In this document: in pieces, positions 7,339 through 45,541 of the stretch
Position numbering within the stretch: the stretch's first letter is position 1
Layout: each line of letters begins with the position of its first letter
Assembly: GCF_017348835.2 (NCBI RefSeq)
Contig: NZ_CP071375.1
Direction: 5' to 3' (one strand)
Origin: Escherichia coli
GTDB lineage: Bacteria; Pseudomonadota; Gammaproteobacteria; Enterobacterales; Enterobacteriaceae
DNA: 64,000 nucleotides
Notes under the pieces: model-generated
Seen by the model: the letters and a program-made list of their open reading frames with translations, nothing else
Databases searched by the model: none
Told to the model about the DNA's origin: nothing
Made by a program: the position numbers and the translations under genes

Positions 7339-7608
7339 ATGCAGACAGTGAAATTACGGCAACAAGGAGGAGCCATGATCGTTACTATCCCACGAGATCT
7401 TGCCACCGATCTTGGCTAGTCACCGGGCACAGAGCTTACCGTGGAGAAAAAGGGCGATAGCGTTAATTTACGCGCAACCGGGCACAAACCGCGTGGGCGT
7501 CTTACCGTCGCGCAGTTGTTGAGCCAGATCGATGAAAGCGAAATTACGCAGCTAAATCAGTCCACAGAAGGATGGGCTGAAGGGAAAAAAGGTAATGAAG
7601 CATGGTAA
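7339..7608 (+). pseudogene. PemI/MazE/ChpS-like (AbrB/SpoVT fold) antitoxin interrupted by an in-frame TAG at 7417-7419
   Basis: Hand translation MQTVKLRQQGGAMIVTIPRDLATDLG*SPGTELTVEKKGDSVNLRATGHKPRGRLTVAQLLSQIDESEITQLNQSTEGWAEGKKGNEAW; SD agga upstream of ATG 7339; 3' end overlaps toxin start by 7 nt. Confidence 0.7.
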
Positions 7609-7970
7609 AGGCACGGACGCCACATCGTGGTGAGATCTGGTATTTTAACCCTGATCCGGTTGCCGGGCATGAACTTCGGGGTCCACATCATTGCATTGTG
7701 GTAACGGACAAAAAACTCAACAATGTTTTAAAAGTTGCTATGTGCTGCCCGATTACAACAGAGGCAAATGCAGCACGTTCCACAGGGGTGACGGTGAACG
7801 TCCTCCCCCATGATACGCAAACCGGTAACCTGCATGGCGTTGTGCTCTGTCACCAGCTAAAAGCTGTCGATCTTATTGCCCGTGGCGCTAAATTTCATAC
7901 CGTTGCCGATGAAGCATTGATTAGTGAGGTGATCGGTAAACTGGTGAATTTAATCGACCCACAACAGTAG
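7602..7970 (+). CDS. PemK/MazF/ChpB-family endoribonuclease toxin
   Basis: 122 aa; RGEIWYFNPDPVAGHELRGPHHCIVV...CCPITT...LHGVVLCHQLKAVDLIAR parallels MazF/ChpBK/PemK; no counterpart at this position in my recollection of K-12. Confidence 0.8.
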   Translation: MVKARTPHRGEIWYFNPDPVAGHELRGPHHCIVVTDKKLNNVLKVAMCCPITTEANAARSTGVTVNVLPHDTQTGNLHGVVLCHQLKAVDLIARGAKFHTVADEALISEVIGKLVNLIDPQQ

Positions 7971-19696: not shown

Positions 19697-19981
19697 ATGA
19701 ATATGAAACCGGAAAGCAAAGAAGCGCCAATCAATATCAGAGCGAAAGCCTCACAGCGTGACCTGATTGATATGGCAGCGAATCTGGTCGCAAAATCGCG
19801 CACTGATTTTATGCTGGATGCCGCATGCCGTGAAGCGCAAGACATCTTATTAGATCAACGACTATTCATCGTTGATGACGAGCAATACGATGCGTTTCTG
19901 GCTGCCCTGGACGCCCCCATCACTGCTGAGCGTCAGGCCAAAATTAACGCATTGATGAATCGTAAATCGCCATGGGAATAA
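19697..19981 (+). CDS. DUF1778-type antitoxin (TacA/AtaR-like)
   Basis: 94 aa; ...INIRAKASQRDLIDMAANLVAKSRTDFMLDAA...KSPWE; overlaps downstream GNAT gene by 10 nt. Confidence 0.75.
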   Translation: MNMKPESKEAPINIRAKASQRDLIDMAANLVAKSRTDFMLDAACREAQDILLDQRLFIVDDEQYDAFLAALDAPITAERQAKINALMNRKSPWE

Positions 19982-20457
19982 CGGCTCCTACTCCCCTAAC
20001 GTCTGAACATAATCTGGCTGACTTTTGCTGTTCCGATCACGGGATGAATGAATGGCTAAAAAAGAAAGCGTTAAAAAATCACAGCTCCGGTCTGTCTCGT
20101 GTTTACGTTATCTGTATTGCCAATACCCGCCAGGTAATCGGCTATTACTGCCTTTCTACAGGCAGTATTCAACGTAATTTGGCTCCTGGAGCCATGCGAC
20201 GTAATGCTCCCGAATCGTTGCCTGTTGTCGTATTAGGCAGACTGGCAATTGATCAAGCCTGGGCAGGTAAAGGGTTGGGCGTCGCATTGTTGAAAGATGC
20301 AGTCTATCGCACAATGTCCATAGCTCAACAGGTAGGGGTTCGTGCGCTCATTGTTCATGCCTTAGACGATTCAGTACGCAATTTCTATCTGAAGTATGCC
20401 TTTGTACCTTCACCATTCCAGTCACTTACCTTACTGTATCCCATTACTCTGGAGTAA
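19972..20457 (+). CDS. GNAT acetyltransferase toxin (TacT/AtaT/ItaT-like)
   Basis: 161 aa; acetyl-CoA binding motif AWAGKGLGVALL; paired with the DUF1778 gene; no counterpart here in my recollection of K-12. Confidence 0.75.
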   Translation: MGITAPTPLTSEHNLADFCCSDHGMNEWLKKKALKNHSSGLSRVYVICIANTRQVIGYYCLSTGSIQRNLAPGAMRRNAPESLPVVVLGRLAIDQAWAGKGLGVALLKDAVYRTMSIAQQVGVRALIVHALDDSVRNFYLKYAFVPSPFQSLTLLYPITLE

Positions 20458-20506: not shown

Positions 20507-21538
<1,032 letters not shown>

Positions 21539-22766
21539 TTATCCTTTTACGCACACCACCTGACGTAGGGTGTAGATAACTTCCACCAGATCGCTTTGTG
21601 CCGCCATCACCGCATCAATATCTTTATACGCCATCGGGATTTCGTCGATCACTTCGGCATCTTTACGGCATTCCACATGCGCGGTGGCACGAATTTGGTC
21701 TTCCACGCTGAACAGTTTTTTCGCTTTAGTTCGGCTCATTACCCGCCCGGCACCGTGGCTGCACGAACAGAACGACTCTTCATTTCCCAGTCCACGAACG
21801 ATAAAGCTTTTTGCCCCCATCGAACCGGGAATAATTCCATATTGACCAGCACGCGCAGACACCGCGCCTTTACGCGTCACGTAGATCTCTTCACCAAAGT
21901 GCTGTTCTTTTTGCACATAGTTGTGGTGACAGTTGATCTCTTCCATCGCCAGCGTTTGTGGCTGTCTGACCGTTTTCTGCGTAATGCTCTGCAACGCCGT
22001 TACCACGTTTTCCATCATCGCATCGCGGTTAAGGCTGGCGAAAAGCTGCGCCCAGGCCACGGCTCTTAGGTAATCATCAAAGTATTCCGTACCTTCCATA
22101 AAGTACGCCAGATCACGCGACGGCAACGTCTCAAGTTGGTCCTGCATCTCTATTTTGCGCCAGATCGATAAAGTAAGTCCCGATGGCATTACCAATTCCG
22201 CGTGAACCGGAGTGCAGCATAATCCACACCTGGTCCGACTCATCAAGGCAGATTTCAATAAAGTGGTTACCCGTTCCCAGCGTTCCCAGGTGTTTATAGT
22301 TGTTAGTGTTAAGGAAACGCGGATATTTTTGCGTTAACCACTGATAACCGGCTTCCAGCTCAGCCCATTTCGCATCGACGTTAACAGGCGGATTTTCCCA
22401 TGCACCTTTATCACGTTTACAACGTCCGGTAGTACGCCCGTGCGGCACCGCAGTTTCAATCGCCTGACGCAGCTCCGCCAGGTTTTCCGGCAGGTCAGCC
22501 GCCGTTAAAGCGGTACGTAGTGCGTTCATTCCACAGCCAATATCCACGCCCACCGCCGCCGGAATAATCGCCCCTTTGGTCGGGATCACGCTACCAATGG
22601 TGGAACCTTTACCCAGGTGTACATCAGGCATTACCGCAATATGTTTGAAAATAAACGGCATCTTCGCCGTATTAATAAGTTGCTGACGCGCATCGGCTTC
22701 TACCGGCACGCCTTTGGTCCACATTTTTACCGGGGCATTTTCAGTGGTCAGTAATTCGTAATTCAT
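21539..22766 (-). pseudogene. rtcB: RNA ligase RtcB, frameshifted
   Basis: Two overlapping minus-strand ORFs (22131..22766, RtcB N-terminus ending ...IDLAQ then 7 out-of-frame codons; 21539..22258, continuing in another frame from ...IEMQDQLETLPSRDLAYF to ...VVCVKG); frame switch at the T4 run at 22153-22156. Confidence 0.8.
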
Positions 22767-22802: not shown

Positions 22803-22818
22803 TGCAACCGTCGTGCCA
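22803..22818 (-). promoter_or_regulatory. Sigma-54 promoter of rtcBA
   Basis: Minus-strand TGGCAC-N5-TTGCA (ctggcacgacggttgcaa) upstream of rtcB; the divergent rtcR encodes a sigma-54 activator. Confidence 0.75.
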
Positions 22819-22952: not shown

Positions 22953-24551
22953 ATGCGTAAAACAGTGGCTTTTGGCTTTGTCGGAACGGTGCTGGATTAT
23001 GCCGGGCGCGGCAGTCAGCGCTGGTCGAAATGGCGTCCGACGCTTTGTTTATGCCAGCAAGAATCGTTGGTCATCGATCGACTGGAATTATTGCATGACG
23101 CCCGCTCGCGCTCGCTATTTGAAACGCTTAAACGCGATATCGCCAGCGTTTCGCCAGAAACAGAAGTGGTGAGCGTTGAGATTGAACTGCATAACCCGTG
23201 GGATTTCGAAGAGGTTTACGCCTGCCTGCATGATTTCGCCCGTGGTTACGAGTTTCAGCCAGAAAAAGAAGACTATTTAATTCACATCACCACCGGCACC
23301 CACGTCGCGCAGATTTGCTGGTTTCTGCTGGCGGAAGCGCGTTACCTGCCCGCCCGGTTGATACAATCTTCACCTCCGCGCAAAAAAGAACAACCGCGCG
23401 GCCTAGGTGAAGTGACGATTATCGATCTCGATTTAAGCCGTTATAACGCCATCGCCAGCCGCTTTGCCGAGGAACGCCAGCAAACGCTTGATTTTCTTAA
23501 GTCCGGTATTGCCACGCGTAACCCCCACTTCAACCGCATGATTGAGCAGATTGAAAAAGTGGCGATTAAATCCCGCGCACCGATCCTGCTAAACGGCCCA
23601 ACCGGTGCGGGCAAGTCATTTCTGGCGCGACGTATATTTGAATTAAAACAGGCGCGGCATCAGTTTAGCGGCGCGTTTGTGGAAGTGAACTGCGCAACCC
23701 TGCGCGGCGATACCGCCATGTCGACGCTGTTTGGTCATGTGAAAGGCGCGTTTACCGGGGCGCGGGAATCTCGTGAAGGATTATTACGCAGCGCCAACGG
23801 CGGAATGTTGTTTCTTGATGAGATTGGCGAACTGGGCGCAGACGAACAGGCAATGCTGCTTAAAGCCATTGAAGAAAAAACCTTTTATCCGTTTGGCAGC
23901 GATCGCCAGGTGAGCAGTGATTTTCAGCTTATCGCCGGAACGGTGCGTGATTTGCGCCAGCTGGTTGCCGAAGGAAAATTTCGCGAAGACCTGTACGCGC
24001 GGATCAATCTCTGGACCTTCACCCTGCCGGGGCTACGCCAGCGCCAGGAAGATATTGAACCTAACCTGGATTATGAAGTGGAGCGTCACGCCGGGCTTAC
24101 CGGCGACAGCGTGCGTTTTAACACCGAAGCGCGGCGCGCCTGGCTGGCCTTTGCGACATCTCCCCAGGCAACATGGCGCGGTAACTTTCGTGAACTTTCT
24201 GCCAGCGTCACGCGGATGGCGACGTTTGCCACGAGCGGACGCATTACTCTGGAAGTGGTTGAAGATGAGATAAACCGTCTGCGCTATAACTGGCAGGAGA
24301 GCCGCCCCTCCGCGCTTACGCAGCTACTGGGCGCAGAGGCAGAAAACATCGATCTCTTCGACCGTATGCAACTGGAACACGTTATCGCAATCTGCCGCCA
24401 GGCAAAGTCGCTTTCCGCAGCCGGACGCCAGCTTTTTGACGTTTCGCGCCAGGGCAAAGCCAGCGTCAATGACGCGGATCGGCTACGCAAATACCTGGCG
24501 CGTTTTGGTCTGACGTGGGAAGCCGTGCAGGATCAGCACAGCTCCAGTTGA
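22953..24551 (+). CDS. rtcR: Sigma-54-dependent transcriptional activator RtcR
   Basis: ORF-track frame trimmed to [18 protein letters not shown]...; 532 aa; AAA+ motifs GPTGAGKS and GAFTGA. Confidence 0.9.
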
Positions 24552-25291
24552 ATATGGTGGTCCGTCAGCACCTGCATCACGCTTACTGGCGGCGGGGCGT
24601 CGGTGTAGACGGCATCTACCATGCTGATGCTGCCCATATTGACCATCGCGTTACGGCCAAATTTCGAGTGGTCGACCACCAGCATAACGTGGCGCGAGTT
24701 CTCAATAATGGCGCGCTTGGTGCGAACTTCGTGGTAATCGAACTCCAGCAGCGAGCCGTCGCTATCGATGCCGCTTATCCCCAGAATGCCGAAATCAAGG
24801 CGGAACTGGGAGATAAAATCGAGCGTCGCTTCGCCAATGATCCCGCCATCGCGGCTGCGTAATTCGCCACCGGCGAGAATAATGCGGAAATCTTCTTTTA
24901 CCATCAACGTGTTAGCAACATTGAGATTGTTGGTGACAATACGCAAATTGCTGTGATTAAGCAGCGCGTGCGCCACCGCTTCCGGCGTGGTGCCAATATC
25001 GATAAACAGCGTCGAGCCGTTGGGGATTTGCTCCGCCACTTTACGGGCGATGCGCTCTTTTTCTTCGGTCTGGGTGGCCTTGCGATCGTGCCACGGCGTG
25101 TTAACCGAACTGGAAGGCAGCGCCGCACCGCCGTGATGGCGCAGGATCAGGTTTTGCTCCGCCAGTTCGTTAAGGTCGCGGCGAATAGTCTGCGGGCTGA
25201 CGGAGAAATGCTCTACCAGCTCTTCGGTACTGACATAACCCTGCTGTTTAACCAGTTCGATAATACCGTTGTGACGTTGTGTTTGTTTCAT
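24533..25291 (-). CDS. glpR: Glycerol-3-phosphate regulon repressor (DeoR family)
   Basis: Trimmed to MKQTQRHNGIIELVKQQGYVSTEELVEHF...; 252 aa. Confidence 0.9.
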   Translation of the reverse strand: MKQTQRHNGIIELVKQQGYVSTEELVEHFSVSPQTIRRDLNELAEQNLILRHHGGAALPSSSVNTPWHDRKATQTEEKERIARKVAEQIPNGSTLFIDIGTTPEAVAHALLNHSNLRIVTNNLNVANTLMVKEDFRIILAGGELRSRDGGIIGEATLDFISQFRLDFGILGISGIDSDGSLLEFDYHEVRTKRAIIENSRHVMLVVDHSKFGRNAMVNMGSISMVDAVYTDAPPPVSVMQVLTDHHIQLELC

Positions 25292-25307
25292 TTCTAAATC
25301 CCTGGAA

Positions 25308-26150
<843 letters not shown>

Positions 26151-28417: not shown

Positions 28418-29020
28418 TTACCGTAAAGCCCACGCCATCATACCCAACGTAACAAAACTCAGGCACGTTCCCCACTCACTCCACTTCCGTATCTGGCTTC
28501 TATTTTTGCTACGCCACTGGCAATAATATCCCAACGCAAAACCAAGCTGTGCGCTTATTGGACCGATAAAATCCGTCCACGGCTGAGGCCAAAATGGCGA
28601 AAAATTCAGGGGTAGCCAGACAACAAGCAGAAAGAAATTGCGGATACTTTCCAGCAACGCAATTTTCGCTGGCGCGATGTAAAAAATGATATTCCAGAGG
28701 ATCAACCATAAATAGACCGGTGCGAATACCAACCAACAATGGAGCCTGCTTTTCAATTCAGATTGAGTTCTACGAGTAAATTGCCAACCGACACAACATA
28801 TTACACAGAAAAAAAGCGCATATTCAGCCGATAACCAAAGTTGTAATTGCAGAAGTGAAATACGCCTGATCATGAGCGAGATTGAGAACAGCATTTCCCC
28901 CAGAAAACTCAGCGTGATAATACAAGCAGCCAGTGCAACCACCGTCGGCCACACCAACAACGGTACAATAACAAAGCCGAGAAATAACGGATAAATATAA
29001 AGTCTGATTATATTCATCAT
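28418..29020 (-). CDS. Small polytopic membrane protein, function unknown
   Basis: 200 aa, hydrophobic throughout (5-6 predicted TM segments); start overlaps the stop of the upstream gene (TAATG). Confidence 0.6.
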   Translation of the reverse strand: MMNIIRLYIYPLFLGFVIVPLLVWPTVVALAACIITLSFLGEMLFSISLMIRRISLLQLQLWLSAEYALFFCVICCVGWQFTRRTQSELKSRLHCWLVFAPVYLWLILWNIIFYIAPAKIALLESIRNFFLLVVWLPLNFSPFWPQPWTDFIGPISAQLGFALGYYCQWRSKNRSQIRKWSEWGTCLSFVTLGMMAWALR

Positions 29021-30552
29021 TATTGTCCTGATGATTCGGGGGATGCTTCATACAGCGGCACATACCCCACATCCTCTACCAACTGTTGCCCCTGCGGACT
29101 TAAAAACCAGTCAACAAATTTCTGCGTTTCCGGCGTGGCATTTTCACGCGTCACCATAAATGCATCGACGATGTACGCATATTTGCCGTTGCGAATGTTT
29201 TCCGCCGTCGGTGTAATATCGTTAATCGCTAGCAATTTTATATTTTTATCAGCATTCATTTGCGTCGCGTAATAGCGGAAGGTATAGCCTATTGCGTTGT
29301 TTGTATTACGATATTCGGCAACGACTTTAATCATTCCCTCCATTACGCTTGCCACTTCGGTTTCCTGCGGCGAGATCATACGGACATTTTTCATGACCTG
29401 TGATTGCATCACCGTCTGGCTGCCAGAGTCTTCCGGGCGTTGCCAGGTCTGGATCTCCTGATCGTTACCGTCAACAGTACGCCAGTTGGTAATTGCACCA
29501 CTGAAAATGTCACGCACCTGTTGTTCAGTCAGAGAATTAACCGGATTATCCGCATTGACGATGAAAACGAATGCTTCACGGGCAAATGGCGTGTATAGCA
29601 AAGTGACGCCCGATTCCTCTGCGCGTTTTTTCTGCCCACCGGAGGGTTGCGCCACAAAAATAATATCGGCATCACCTTTAACAATCCGGTTATATGCATC
29701 GGGGGTACGAGAGTTCTCCAGATATTCCCAGATGTGGAAATCTTCCGGTATAACGCTCAACGCATAAAAGGCAGAGGCATAAATTGGGTACGCCGCCGTA
29801 GCACCATCGAGTCGCGGCCAGTTTTGCGTAAACTGAATTTGCGGTTTACCACGCAGTGGTGTCAGTTGATTATTGAGTTTATCGGGTCGCCAGGCCCAGG
29901 TATCAATATTTTCACGGACACCGACGCCGGGATTAAGCTGTTTATATAAATAAGCCTGGTAACCGGCGACAAAACCAAGCATGAGAAGGATAAACAAGAG
30001 GGAATTACGGCAACGTAACCCGGACGTGCCCGTTAAAAGATGTCTGGTCGGCCAACCGTACCCCAGCGAAAAACTGATATGCGCGCCAACGGGTATAATG
30101 ACTATCCACCAGTACTCACCACCAACTAATGAGACTAACAAAACACCCAGCCAGGGAAGCATAAGATCAGCCAACCAACCCGATCCCATCTGGCGAAATT
30201 GATAATCTGCCAGATGCAGCGCGATTATCCAGCCAATCAGGGTTAATAGTGCGGGTAAGAGAAAAAAGCATTGTCGCCAGGCGGCTATTTCTCTTTTTTC
30301 TGGTGCACTATCGCCCGCCCATACTCGCCCCGAGAAAAATAGCATTATCGCACCCAGCGCCAACATAAAAATGTTAAGCAGAAGGTAAATTGTTGGCGTG
30401 AAGAGTAAATTGCAAACTTCAAGAATGGCGGCAAGCCCGCCCCCCAGCATAGCAACAACCGCTGCCAAAAATTGCGTCAGTATGGGGAGGCCGAAAAAAG
30501 TCATTACCAGCGAGGACAAAATCCATTTTCTGTTTTGCATTATTCTTTCCAT
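29020..30552 (-). CDS. Polytopic membrane domain fused to a PstS-like (phosphate-binding, PBP type 2) periplasmic domain
   Basis: 510 aa; N-terminal ~200 aa hydrophobic; C-terminal region has PstS-like motifs LDGATAAYPIY, RPEDSGSQTVM, NAIGYTFRYYA, KFVDWFLSPQG; likely the intact form of what K-12 keeps as the yzgL remnant. Confidence 0.65.
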   Translation of the reverse strand: MERIMQNRKWILSSLVMTFFGLPILTQFLAAVVAMLGGGLAAILEVCNLLFTPTIYLLLNIFMLALGAIMLFFSGRVWAGDSAPEKREIAAWRQCFFLLPALLTLIGWIIALHLADYQFRQMGSGWLADLMLPWLGVLLVSLVGGEYWWIVIIPVGAHISFSLGYGWPTRHLLTGTSGLRCRNSLLFILLMLGFVAGYQAYLYKQLNPGVGVRENIDTWAWRPDKLNNQLTPLRGKPQIQFTQNWPRLDGATAAYPIYASAFYALSVIPEDFHIWEYLENSRTPDAYNRIVKGDADIIFVAQPSGGQKKRAEESGVTLLYTPFAREAFVFIVNADNPVNSLTEQQVRDIFSGAITNWRTVDGNDQEIQTWQRPEDSGSQTVMQSQVMKNVRMISPQETEVASVMEGMIKVVAEYRNTNNAIGYTFRYYATQMNADKNIKLLAINDITPTAENIRNGKYAYIVDAFMVTRENATPETQKFVDWFLSPQGQQLVEDVGYVPLYEASPESSGQ

Positions 30553-42242: not shown

Positions 42243-43445
42243 TTACCTGAACTGATAATGACCTTCGCCCAATCGGATAACCCTTCCCTCTTCTTCTGCG
42301 CGGTTCAGCCACACACTAATTTGTTCGATGGTTAAACCAGTACAAGACGCCAGCCTTTCAATACTTATCGATTCCTTTGCAAGGATCGCCAGTTCCGCCA
42401 CAAAGAGTTGATAAAAATCGACAGGCGTATACGCGGGCATTACTGCGTAATTTGCGTCATCTTCATGCAGCGAAAACAGTTCTGGTTGAGCGTTACGGAG
42501 TGCTCTGTCATACATCAGCCCAGGAACGTCTGGCAGTCTGATCGTCACATTCTCAGCCTGTTCAGCACTCCATGACGCCCCATTTTCTACTAATCGTGAA
42601 TTGGCTGATTGCATATCCTGATTTGGTTTAACCTGCACAGGCAGCCACTGATGTTTTAATGCCTCCATCGCCCCGGTTATCGTTCCACCGGTCATTCCCG
42701 CACGTACAACCATTGCGCTTTCAGCAAGGCAATAAATATATTTATTTCGCGCCATCGCATTGCCGACGGTGAAACGTACCTCTGGGTAAAACGGCGAAAT
42801 CAACACCAGGTTGCCTGCTATAAGCCCTTCACGCCATTTCACTAACGTACTCGTTTTTAACAAGCTATCAGCTAATACGCCAACGGCAGTTCCCCCGGCC
42901 TCCAGTGCCGACGCCATTGCACATTCATCAATACCTCGCGCACCACCAGAGATAACGCAAATCCCCTGTTGGGCCAGTTTCGCGGCCAGTTGTTGGGTAT
43001 AGCGCAAATCGTCAGTCGGAGCATCTCGCGAGCCAACAATCGCCATACCTTCCGCTTGCAGTAATGCTTTATTCCCGCAGCCAAATAAAACGGGAGGTGC
43101 ATCCGTTCGCAATCGGTTTTTCAAGCGAACGGGATAATCGGCATCTCCGCGGGTTAAGATCCATAAACCGGCGCGTTGCCACTTATCTACCGCCAACGCC
43201 AGACTATGACCGCGCGCCAGCAAGCCAAGAATACGCTCCTGAGAAATACGCGGATCGCTCCAGCCTGTAAGTTTATCTTGCGGTTGCGGCACCAGAAGCT
43301 CGGCGGGACTGATACGTTGGTGCTTCAGCCATAATGCAAACTTCCCCCATTCACTATTACTAAGAGGTTTATACTCACTCGCCGCCGCGCGAGAAAAATC
43401 GCTGGTTAGCAGGAGAGTTGCTTGTGCATTGGCTGAAAGATTCAT
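42243..43445 (-). CDS. DprA/Smf-like (Rossmann/SLOG) protein; candidate antitoxin/partner of the upstream helicase
   Basis: Motif GMAIVGSRDAPTDDLRYTQQLAAKLAQQGICVISGGARGIDECAMASALEAGGTAVGVLADSL is typical of the DprA core; start set at Met overlapping the helicase stop (TGATG); an alternative upstream Met at 43538 would give 431 aa. Confidence 0.75.
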   Translation of the reverse strand: MNLSANAQATLLLTSDFSRAAASEYKPLSNSEWGKFALWLKHQRISPAELLVPQPQDKLTGWSDPRISQERILGLLARGHSLALAVDKWQRAGLWILTRGDADYPVRLKNRLRTDAPPVLFGCGNKALLQAEGMAIVGSRDAPTDDLRYTQQLAAKLAQQGICVISGGARGIDECAMASALEAGGTAVGVLADSLLKTSTLVKWREGLIAGNLVLISPFYPEVRFTVGNAMARNKYIYCLAESAMVVRAGMTGGTITGAMEALKHQWLPVQVKPNQDMQSANSRLVENGASWSAEQAENVTIRLPDVPGLMYDRALRNAQPELFSLHEDDANYAVMPAYTPVDFYQLFVAELAILAKESISIERLASCTGLTIEQISVWLNRAEEEGRVIRLGEGHYQFR

Positions 43446-45541
43446 CAATTTTTTACCGAGGTAGAAGCAAGGGCAAGAGGATAAACCGTCGGGCAACCTG
43501 CCTGGCCTAACAGTGCTGTCAGAACTGTCAGCGTCCATGCAGAATCCACGATATCGTCAACCAGCAACGCCGGACCAGGCATCAAAGGAGGGGTAATCAC
43601 AAACGCCCCGTCGAGATTTTGACACTGGTGGAAACGGTTTTGCTGCATTTTCTGCGGTGGATTGTCCACGACTTTTTCAATGGCATCAATAAAAGGTAAG
43701 CCAAGTTTCGCCGCCAGTCGCCGGGCAAAATCAGGAACCAGGTCGAGGTGCTTTAATGAAGGAACGCAGCATACCCAGGTTGGTTCAGGATGCGGATTCC
43801 AGCGTTGGCGAACCATTTCCGCACATGCCTCCACCAGTTCATCACTGAATCGCCCCGTTTTTTTCTCCTGTGCTACCTGCTTTCCCCACCCGGAATCTCC
43901 CCAACGAGAAAGGATTCGCCCCGTAGATCCTTGTAAACTCGCAGGCAAGTTCCCTTTAAATCCGTATTGCGTAAAAGCCCCAGCTGCCACCTGTTTATTG
44001 AGATTTAATGGCAGGTCAGCGTGTTTAATAAATAAGTTTGCCGCATGGAGTAAGCCGCTATCAATGTCGGGCGACAACAACGGATGCTGAAGACAACTGC
44101 TACATTTACCACAATGTTCGGCACCTGGCTCATCGAGTGCGCGGCGCAGAAATTGCATTTTGCACTCCTTGGTCGTGATATAGCTTTCAACGTCTGCCAG
44201 CTCACTTTTTCTCTGATTCATCAAATGGTTAATTCGTTCATGGTCAGGAGAAAAACTGACAATTGTTCTGCGCCATAATTTCTCGGTATACACCACAGGC
44301 GATGGATTTTCAGCTACCAATAATTTCAGTGCTTTTTCTATTTGCCCGTAACGGAGATTCGTCCGTTGTTCAATGCCTCGTAAGGTAAGACCGTCATTCA
44401 CGCTAAGTACGTTGAGTATTTCATGAATTTGCGCCTCCGCAGGAAAGGCGCTTTCACGGAAGAATTTATGAATAGCACGGTCTTCACTGCCGCAAAGCAG
44501 TATGCCAACAGCAGAATCGATACCGCGACCGGCACGCCCCACCTGTTGGTAGTAACCAACTATCGAACCTGGCATCTGGTAATGAATAACAAACCCCAAA
44601 TCCGGTTTGTCAAAGCCCATTCCCAGCGCCGTTGTCGCAACCAGCACTTTAATTTTATTTGCCAGCAACGCCTGCTCCAGATATTCCCTGGCAGTATTAG
44701 AATCTTCCGCGCCTTCACAAGTCACGCCGCTGTAGTAAGCAAATGCACTGATACCATTTTTCCTTAACCACTCGGCGACAAGTTCGGCATCGCGAGTAGT
44801 CAGGGTATAAACAATTCCCGATTTGGAAAACTGAGGGATAACTGTTGCTAACCATGCCAGACGGGATGACTGTTCACCTAAGACTAAGGCATCAAGCGCC
44901 AAACTTTCGCGAGCCAGCGTTCCACGCTGAATCACAATGTCACCCAATTGCTGACGGATATCCTCAACGACACGGTTATTCGCTGTCGCGGTTGTACCCA
45001 GAACAGGGGTATTCGCAGGTAGTTGGCGCAAAATATCTAATATACGTCGGTAATCCGGGCGAAAATCGTGGCCCCAATCAGAGATGCAGTGCGCCTCGTC
45101 GACCACAAGCAAGCCAATACGATCGGCTATAGGATATAAAACCGTTTCGATAAAGTCCTGGTTTGCCAAACGTTCCGGGGAAACCAGCAAGCAATCGACC
45201 TCACCTTGCAGCAACTTATCGCTAATGCGCTGCCATTCTTCTCTGTTTGTAGAATTCAACGTTTCAGCCGTAATACCTAACCGTTCAGCGGCGGCAACCT
45301 GGTTACGCATCAGGGCAAGCAAAGGAGAGATGATAATTGTCGGGCCAGCGCCGCGATCGCGGAAGATTTTACTGGCGATGAAGTACACAGCACTTTTCCC
45401 CCAGCCAGTGCGTTGGACAACCAGCAGTTTTCGCCGTTGGTTCACCACCGCGTCTATGGCTTCCCATTGCCCTTCCCTGAAAGTAGCGGTGGTATTTCCT
45501 AACATCCGCTGTAAAAGCAATTCAGCTGCGTGCTTTTCCAT
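43445..45541 (-). CDS. RecQ-like SF2 DNA helicase fused to a C-terminal ComF/PRTase-like domain; candidate toxin/effector
   Basis: 698 aa; Walker A TGWGKSAV, DEAH box VVDEAHCISDWGHDFRPDY, motif VI QQVGRAGR, Cys cluster CGKCSSC, C-terminal PRTase motif ALLVDDIVDSAWTL; strong SD aggag upstream of ATG. Confidence 0.8.
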   Translation of the reverse strand: MEKHAAELLLQRMLGNTTATFREGQWEAIDAVVNQRRKLLVVQRTGWGKSAVYFIASKIFRDRGAGPTIIISPLLALMRNQVAAAERLGITAETLNSTNREEWQRISDKLLQGEVDCLLVSPERLANQDFIETVLYPIADRIGLLVVDEAHCISDWGHDFRPDYRRILDILRQLPANTPVLGTTATANNRVVEDIRQQLGDIVIQRGTLARESLALDALVLGEQSSRLAWLATVIPQFSKSGIVYTLTTRDAELVAEWLRKNGISAFAYYSGVTCEGAEDSNTAREYLEQALLANKIKVLVATTALGMGFDKPDLGFVIHYQMPGSIVGYYQQVGRAGRGIDSAVGILLCGSEDRAIHKFFRESAFPAEAQIHEILNVLSVNDGLTLRGIEQRTNLRYGQIEKALKLLVAENPSPVVYTEKLWRRTIVSFSPDHERINHLMNQRKSELADVESYITTKECKMQFLRRALDEPGAEHCGKCSSCLQHPLLSPDIDSGLLHAANLFIKHADLPLNLNKQVAAGAFTQYGFKGNLPASLQGSTGRILSRWGDSGWGKQVAQEKKTGRFSDELVEACAEMVRQRWNPHPEPTWVCCVPSLKHLDLVPDFARRLAAKLGLPFIDAIEKVVDNPPQKMQQNRFHQCQNLDGAFVITPPLMPGPALLVDDIVDSAWTLTVLTALLGQAGCPTVYPLALASTSVKN

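Follow-up and report, generated by a model that had tools for sequence, protein, structure and literature searches.

The stretch of DNA analyzed here, the window, is 64 kb (64,000 nucleotides) of an E. coli chromosome. The genes in and around the rtc locus lie in the order malT, a TacA/GNAT toxin-antitoxin pair, rtcA, rtcB, rtcR, glpR, glpG, glpE and glpD. The locus resembles the rtcR/rtcBA operon of K-12 in that it is located between malT and glpR and has an identical sigma-54 promoter element. It differs from K-12 in two ways. The TacA/GNAT pair between malT and rtcA is absent from K-12, and the rtcB of the window, with one extra base after codon 204, is unable to encode the complete enzyme. 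The pair consists of a TacA (DUF1778) antitoxin and a GNAT-family (TacT-like) acetyltransferase toxin (19697-20457, plus strand), and is also present in O157:H7 TR01. The features of the rtc locus in the window are:

20507..21535, minus strand: rtcA, intact in the window, 342 aa; its start abuts the rtcB stop
22766..21539, minus strand: rtcB pseudogene, 1228 nt compared to 1227 nt in intact alleles
22131..22766, minus strand: N-terminal open reading frame of 211 aa, consisting of RtcB residues 1-204 plus NRDAGPT; TGA at 22133-22131
22152, minus strand: inserted base, T on the coding strand (A on the plus strand), between codons 204 and 206
21539..22150, minus strand: RtcB codons 206-408 plus stop, out of frame with the native start; contains His281 and His337
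22803..22818, minus strand: sigma-54 type -24/-12 promoter element of rtcBA, TGGCACGACGGTTGCA (TGGCAC-N5-TTGCA), identical to K-12
22953..24551, plus strand: rtcR, intact, 532 aa, 5 aa differences from K-12 (527/532 identical), no internal stops

The first-pass annotation of this DNA described an N-terminal RtcB frame that terminates at 22131 after seven aberrant codons, with the rest of RtcB continuing in a different frame. Both statements are borne out by the list of open reading frames and the sequence itself. The N-terminal open reading frame ends with ...GTYFIDLAQ followed by the seven aberrant codons NRDAGPT, and a second open reading frame, which reads ...RKIEMQDQLETLPSRDL...VVCVKG, ends at the native rtcB stop at 21539. 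The C-terminal part is reported by gene callers as a 216-aa open reading frame, and both halves match PF01139 (RtcB RNA ligase). The length of 408 aa given for the intact RtcB frame is also correct (intact rtcB is 1227 nt). There is no such uninterrupted frame of ~408 aa in the window, where the stop comes after 211 codons.

Alignment to an intact rtcB had been suggested as a way to tell a +1 from a -2 indel. Alignments to the alleles of O157:H7 TR01 and K-12 identify the lesion as a +1 insertion, which turns GCGCAAAAAGAG into GCGCAAAATAGAG. A deletion of two bases is ruled out, since intact alleles are 1227 nt and the window allele is 1228 nt. On the coding strand, the window reads GCGCAAAA-T-AGAGATG and intact alleles, including that of K-12, read GC(G/A)CAAAAAGAGATG. 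The A5 run of the intact alleles (coding strand) is interrupted by the T, giving A4-T-A, and positions 22153-22156 correspond to the four As that precede the inserted T on that strand. The shift had been mapped to a T4 run at 22153-22156. This location is off by no more than one base, in that 22152 adjoins the run, but the lesion is not a change in run length; it is a T that interrupts A5.

The break separates residues of the enzyme that are normally in one polypeptide. Asp75, Cys78, His168 and His185, which are N-terminal metal ligands, are encoded before the break, and His281, His337 and Arg341 after it. The sole product of the native ATG contains 204 native residues, and in the window allele the N-terminal metal ligands and His337 are no longer part of a single polypeptide. 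E. coli RtcB is covalently guanylylated at His337 (the GMP acceptor), and the substitution H337A abolishes ligation (PMC3458531). Because His337 is encoded downstream of the break, the 211-aa N-terminal fragment is predicted to be incapable of ligating RNA.

Distribution and age of the insertion allele

The insertion allele is rare among complete E. coli genomes. A megablast search with the 1228-nt rtcB against 5426 such genomes gave an rtcB match in 4857 (near full-length in 4850), and the insertion was found in only two of the 4857. One is F2_81 (pig rectal swab, Australia; NZ_CP043542.1), with an rtcB that is 100% identical to that of the window. The other is PE164 (pig with diarrhoea, Nanjing, China; NZ_CP114128.1), with a single synonymous difference at codon 365. 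These two genomes come from different countries and different laboratories. In both, PGAP, the annotation pipeline of NCBI, has labeled the gene (CPH39_RS01550 in F2_81, LZG51_RS01575 in PE164) 'RNA-splicing ligase RtcB, frameshifted', and the insertion allele of these pseudogenes is the same as that of the window. Over the 64 kb, the window differs from F2_81 by 10 SNPs and from PE164 by 3 SNPs, with no indels, and it is identical to neither record. Because the differences are so few, we conclude from the sequences that the window represents a third isolate of the F2_81/PE164 clone.

The allele is also present beyond the complete genomes. The exact 211-aa truncated product, including its aberrant tail, is encoded on 29 contigs (NCBI, ENA and Logan assemblies), and the insertion is in all six of the further assemblies that were retrieved (SRR17729764, ERR279342, SRR11949069, SRR13992753, GCA_900196605.1 and GCA_900195445.1). 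With the window, F2_81 and PE164, this makes nine sequences with the insertion, the six assemblies being from separate runs or projects. Thus, related strains with the same allele, which the first-pass annotation had proposed to look for, do exist.

Most other alleles have the normal length. In a sample of 60 records taken at even steps down the ranking of matches, 57 of the 59 full-coverage rtcB matches have a length of exactly 1227 nt. The other two are F2_81 (1228 nt) and one allele with nine additional nucleotides; one further record is a remnant only. The rtcB match in O157:H7 strain Show KS 470-1 (NZ_CP038309.1, 448354-449589) is 1236 nt, 9 nt longer than normal, which suggests an in-frame insertion allele. 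No rtcB match was found in 569 of the 5426 complete genomes (~10%). Loss or variation of rtcB is not unusual, given these genomes without a match and the +9-nt allele and the remnant in the sample. The rtcR/rtcBA locus of the window is canonical apart from a loss-of-function allele that is specific to one lineage and is already annotated as a pseudogene in RefSeq, and nothing in it is categorically new.

Removal of the inserted T from the window sequence restores a 408-aa protein that is identical to a common "MULTISPECIES" RtcB found on at least 1000 contigs, and that differs from K-12 RtcB at 4 residues. The nearest intact DNA allele, that of O157 TR01 (98.6% identity), differs from the repaired rtcB at 14 synonymous and 2 nonsynonymous sites, and at both of the latter (positions 156 and 228) the window residue is that of K-12. 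There is no second lesion in rtcB in any clone member compared. Because the repaired protein is identical to a very common RtcB and there is no second rtcB lesion, the pseudogene appears to be young and recently inactivated. A long-decayed pseudogene is ruled out by the identity of the repaired protein to the common RtcB and by the differences from the O157 TR01 allele, of which 14 are synonymous and 2 nonsynonymous. The differences of F2_81 and PE164 from the window are at 13 non-overlapping sites in 64 kb, or ~2 x 10^-4 per site between F2_81 and PE164. At clock rates typical of E. coli, such a divergence would have taken decades to a few centuries.

One clone member has a lesion in rtcA as well. 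In the Logan assembly of SRR11949069 (4232-5167), rtcA has a +1 insertion of an A that turns GACCAGC into GACACAGC (equivalent to window ~20678) and limits the product to 311 aa, and it also has a C-to-T SNP (equivalent to window ~20603). The frameshift is in this single Logan assembly only. It is possibly a secondary decay of the rtc operon, as expected if selection on the operon has ceased. Two other clone members have private changes near the locus. In SRR17729764, malT is split by the loss of 1 nt from a C4 run (position ~6302; window 19465), and in SRR13992753 (1-730; window ~25150-25766) a deletion has taken out glpE and glpG and left glpD joined to a truncated glpR.

Origin of the broken frame

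We are confident that rtcB in this clone is a genuine and recent pseudogene, made by a spontaneous single-base insertion in the ancestor of this pig-associated clone, a single event that has been inherited vertically since. The same lesion is found in independently sequenced relatives and the orthologue is intact in most strains, as is the case for inherited pseudogenes. The T inserted after codon 204 (coding strand, window 22152) shifts the frame and brings a stop 7 codons later. The resulting 211-aa product, without the C-terminal half that includes His337, would have lost 3'-phosphate/5'-OH RNA ligation. The clone in which the insertion is inherited is present in pigs in at least Australia and China. 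rtcR, the sigma-54 promoter and rtcA are intact in the window, and the rest of the system is probably functionally orphaned. The operon might now be starting to decay, as the rtcA frameshift in one clone member could indicate.

Loss of RtcB could be adaptive rather than neutral in the clone, through a link to a MazEF-like module, or the 204-residue N-terminal fragment could bind the CARF domain of RtcR and alter how the intact rtcA is regulated. We find this reading improbable. The window has a MazE/MazF-like module (7339-7970) that is rare, being in 43 of the 5426 complete E. coli genomes. Its MazE/AbrB-family antitoxin gene (7339-7608, plus strand) has a nonsense mutation compared to the intact O145:H28 homologue (TGG to TAG, codon 27, window 7418). 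The PemK/MazF-family toxin open reading frame (7602-7970, plus strand) overlaps the antitoxin gene and is intact, with 6 aa changes. RtcB can re-ligate MazF-type cuts, and it is a speculation that the apparently antitoxin-defective MazF-type module and the loss of RtcB in the same clone are functionally linked. In the clone, which lacks RtcB, RNAs cut by a MazF-type toxin would no longer be re-ligated.

The allele could also have retained some function, either by recoding (a +1 ribosomal frameshift near CAA-AAU-AGA), by reassembly of a split enzyme, or through a regulatory role of the N-terminal fragment that is exerted via the CARF domain of RtcR. AGA is a rare codon, and it would be in the A site right after the insertion. 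This is reminiscent of the programmed +1 frameshifting of prfB (RF2), in that a +1 shift is needed for read-through and a slow AGA codon follows the candidate site. However, the prfB site is conserved, has a slippery P-site codon and is preceded by a Shine-Dalgarno stimulator, and the window allele has none of these. It occurs in a single clone (2 of the 4857 genomes) and is not conserved across lineages as a programmed signal, the P-site codons would re-pair poorly in the +1 frame (CAA to AAA and AAU to AUA), and no upstream Shine-Dalgarno-like stimulator was seen on inspection of the sequence. Of the elements of such a site, the slow AGA codon in the A site is the sole one found here. Reassembly of a split enzyme would fit with two halves that are otherwise undamaged and that both match PF01139, and with the start codons in the C-terminal frame shortly after the premature stop. 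However, no good ribosome-binding site precedes these candidate starts, and an intact second half is equally expected of a young pseudogene. The loss of rtcA in one clone member also argues against a retained function. For a regulatory role of the fragment, there is the finding that RtcB binds the CARF domain of RtcR independently of catalysis (PMC9650030). We consider it highly improbable that the allele has kept a function in any of these three ways.

The first-pass annotation had left two options, an rtcB pseudogene or a homopolymer sequencing error in a gene that is really intact. Some features of the data are those expected of a sequencing or assembly artefact: the insertion site adjoins a short A/T run, and complete genomes are often from long reads, which are prone to indels. 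However, the change is a T put into a run of As and not a change in run length, and the identical lesion is in all nine sequences, which include Illumina HiSeq/MiSeq A5 drafts, Logan assemblies and two complete genomes. In addition, the surrounding 64 kb of both complete genomes is without another frameshift. Among the ~55 genes in this region of F2_81, rtcB is the only one with a frameshift, and the same is true of PE164; the sole other pseudogene in the region in these genomes is due to a nonsense mutation. Thus, neither assembly is riddled with indels. The Australian drafts (GCA_9001959xx/9001965xx) are Illumina HiSeq/MiSeq A5 assemblies with ~37-68x coverage (Reid et al. 2017 supplement, PMC5761274). 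We used the table of Reid et al. 2017 (PMC5761274) for platform and coverage only, as its mapping of accessions to strains is ambiguous: GCA_900196535 is beside F2_4A/F2_17 in the table and has the RefSeq name F2_81. A literature search under the strain name F2_81 found nothing relevant. Because a non-homopolymer insertion is reproduced across platforms, laboratories and continents, it is not a sequencing error; of the two options the pseudogene stands, and the chance that rtcB is really intact is negligible.

A lesion at a short mononucleotide run might point to phase variation, with rtcB switched ON and OFF through a simple-sequence tract. This can be dismissed with near certainty: tracts that slip at useful rates are much longer than 5 nucleotides, the run has been broken up (A4-T-A) and not made longer or shorter, nine of nine clone sequences are OFF, and there is no ON variant of the DNA allele among the complete genomes. 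The broken frame is biology rather than sequencing error, and has little import beyond correct annotation.

The rest of the Rtc system and neighboring elements

Comparison with K-12 confirms for the window the earlier impression that the RtcR-sigma54 promoter and rtcA look intact. The regulatory consequences of losing RtcB are less clear. In E. coli K-12, RtcR-dependent induction of rtcBA does not occur unless RtcB is catalytically active (PMC9650030), and by analogy the Rtc system may be uninducible, or functionally orphaned, in the clone. In Salmonella, however, insertions in rtcB raise rather than abolish expression of the operon (PMC7790460). Because this result opposes the K-12 model, it is uncertain in which direction rtcA would be affected.

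The insertion might also affect rtcA through translation or transcription of the operon. The rtcB-rtcA junction is TAA-ATG-ATG, and rtcA has its own AAGGA Shine-Dalgarno-like motif. Because the rtcA start abuts the rtcB stop, translational coupling of rtcA to rtcB would probably be lost. No C-rich, G-poor stretch was found in the ~590 untranslated nucleotides after the premature stop, where G is at least as frequent as C in all 100-nt windows. A signal for Rho-dependent polarity is not supported, there being no rut-like composition downstream of the premature stop, and strong polarity on rtcA does not seem to be indicated, although we regard this as uncertain.

According to earlier reports, the Rtc system helps cells to recover from ribosome-targeting antibiotics and from toxin-mediated RNA damage. 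We have here an E. coli clone, in pigs on two continents, without the RtcB RNA-repair ligase. The clone is a natural rtcB-null background in which rtcR and rtcA are intact. As such, it could be used to test the disagreement between K-12, in which RtcB is needed for activation of RtcR, and Salmonella, in which loss of rtcB raises operon expression.

Two other gene pairs in the window are located outside the rtc locus. A gene for a PstS-family substrate-binding protein and a gene for a 200-aa hypothetical protein (28418-30543, minus strand) are between glgP and glpD, and neither has a PADLOC match. Overlapping genes for a RecQ-family helicase and a DprA-like protein (42243-45541, minus strand) are between gntU and yhgN. 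This RecQ-like/DprA-like pair matches PADLOC PsyrT (E = 0) and PsyrA (E = 4e-202), that is, the PsyrTA anti-phage / toxin-antitoxin system.
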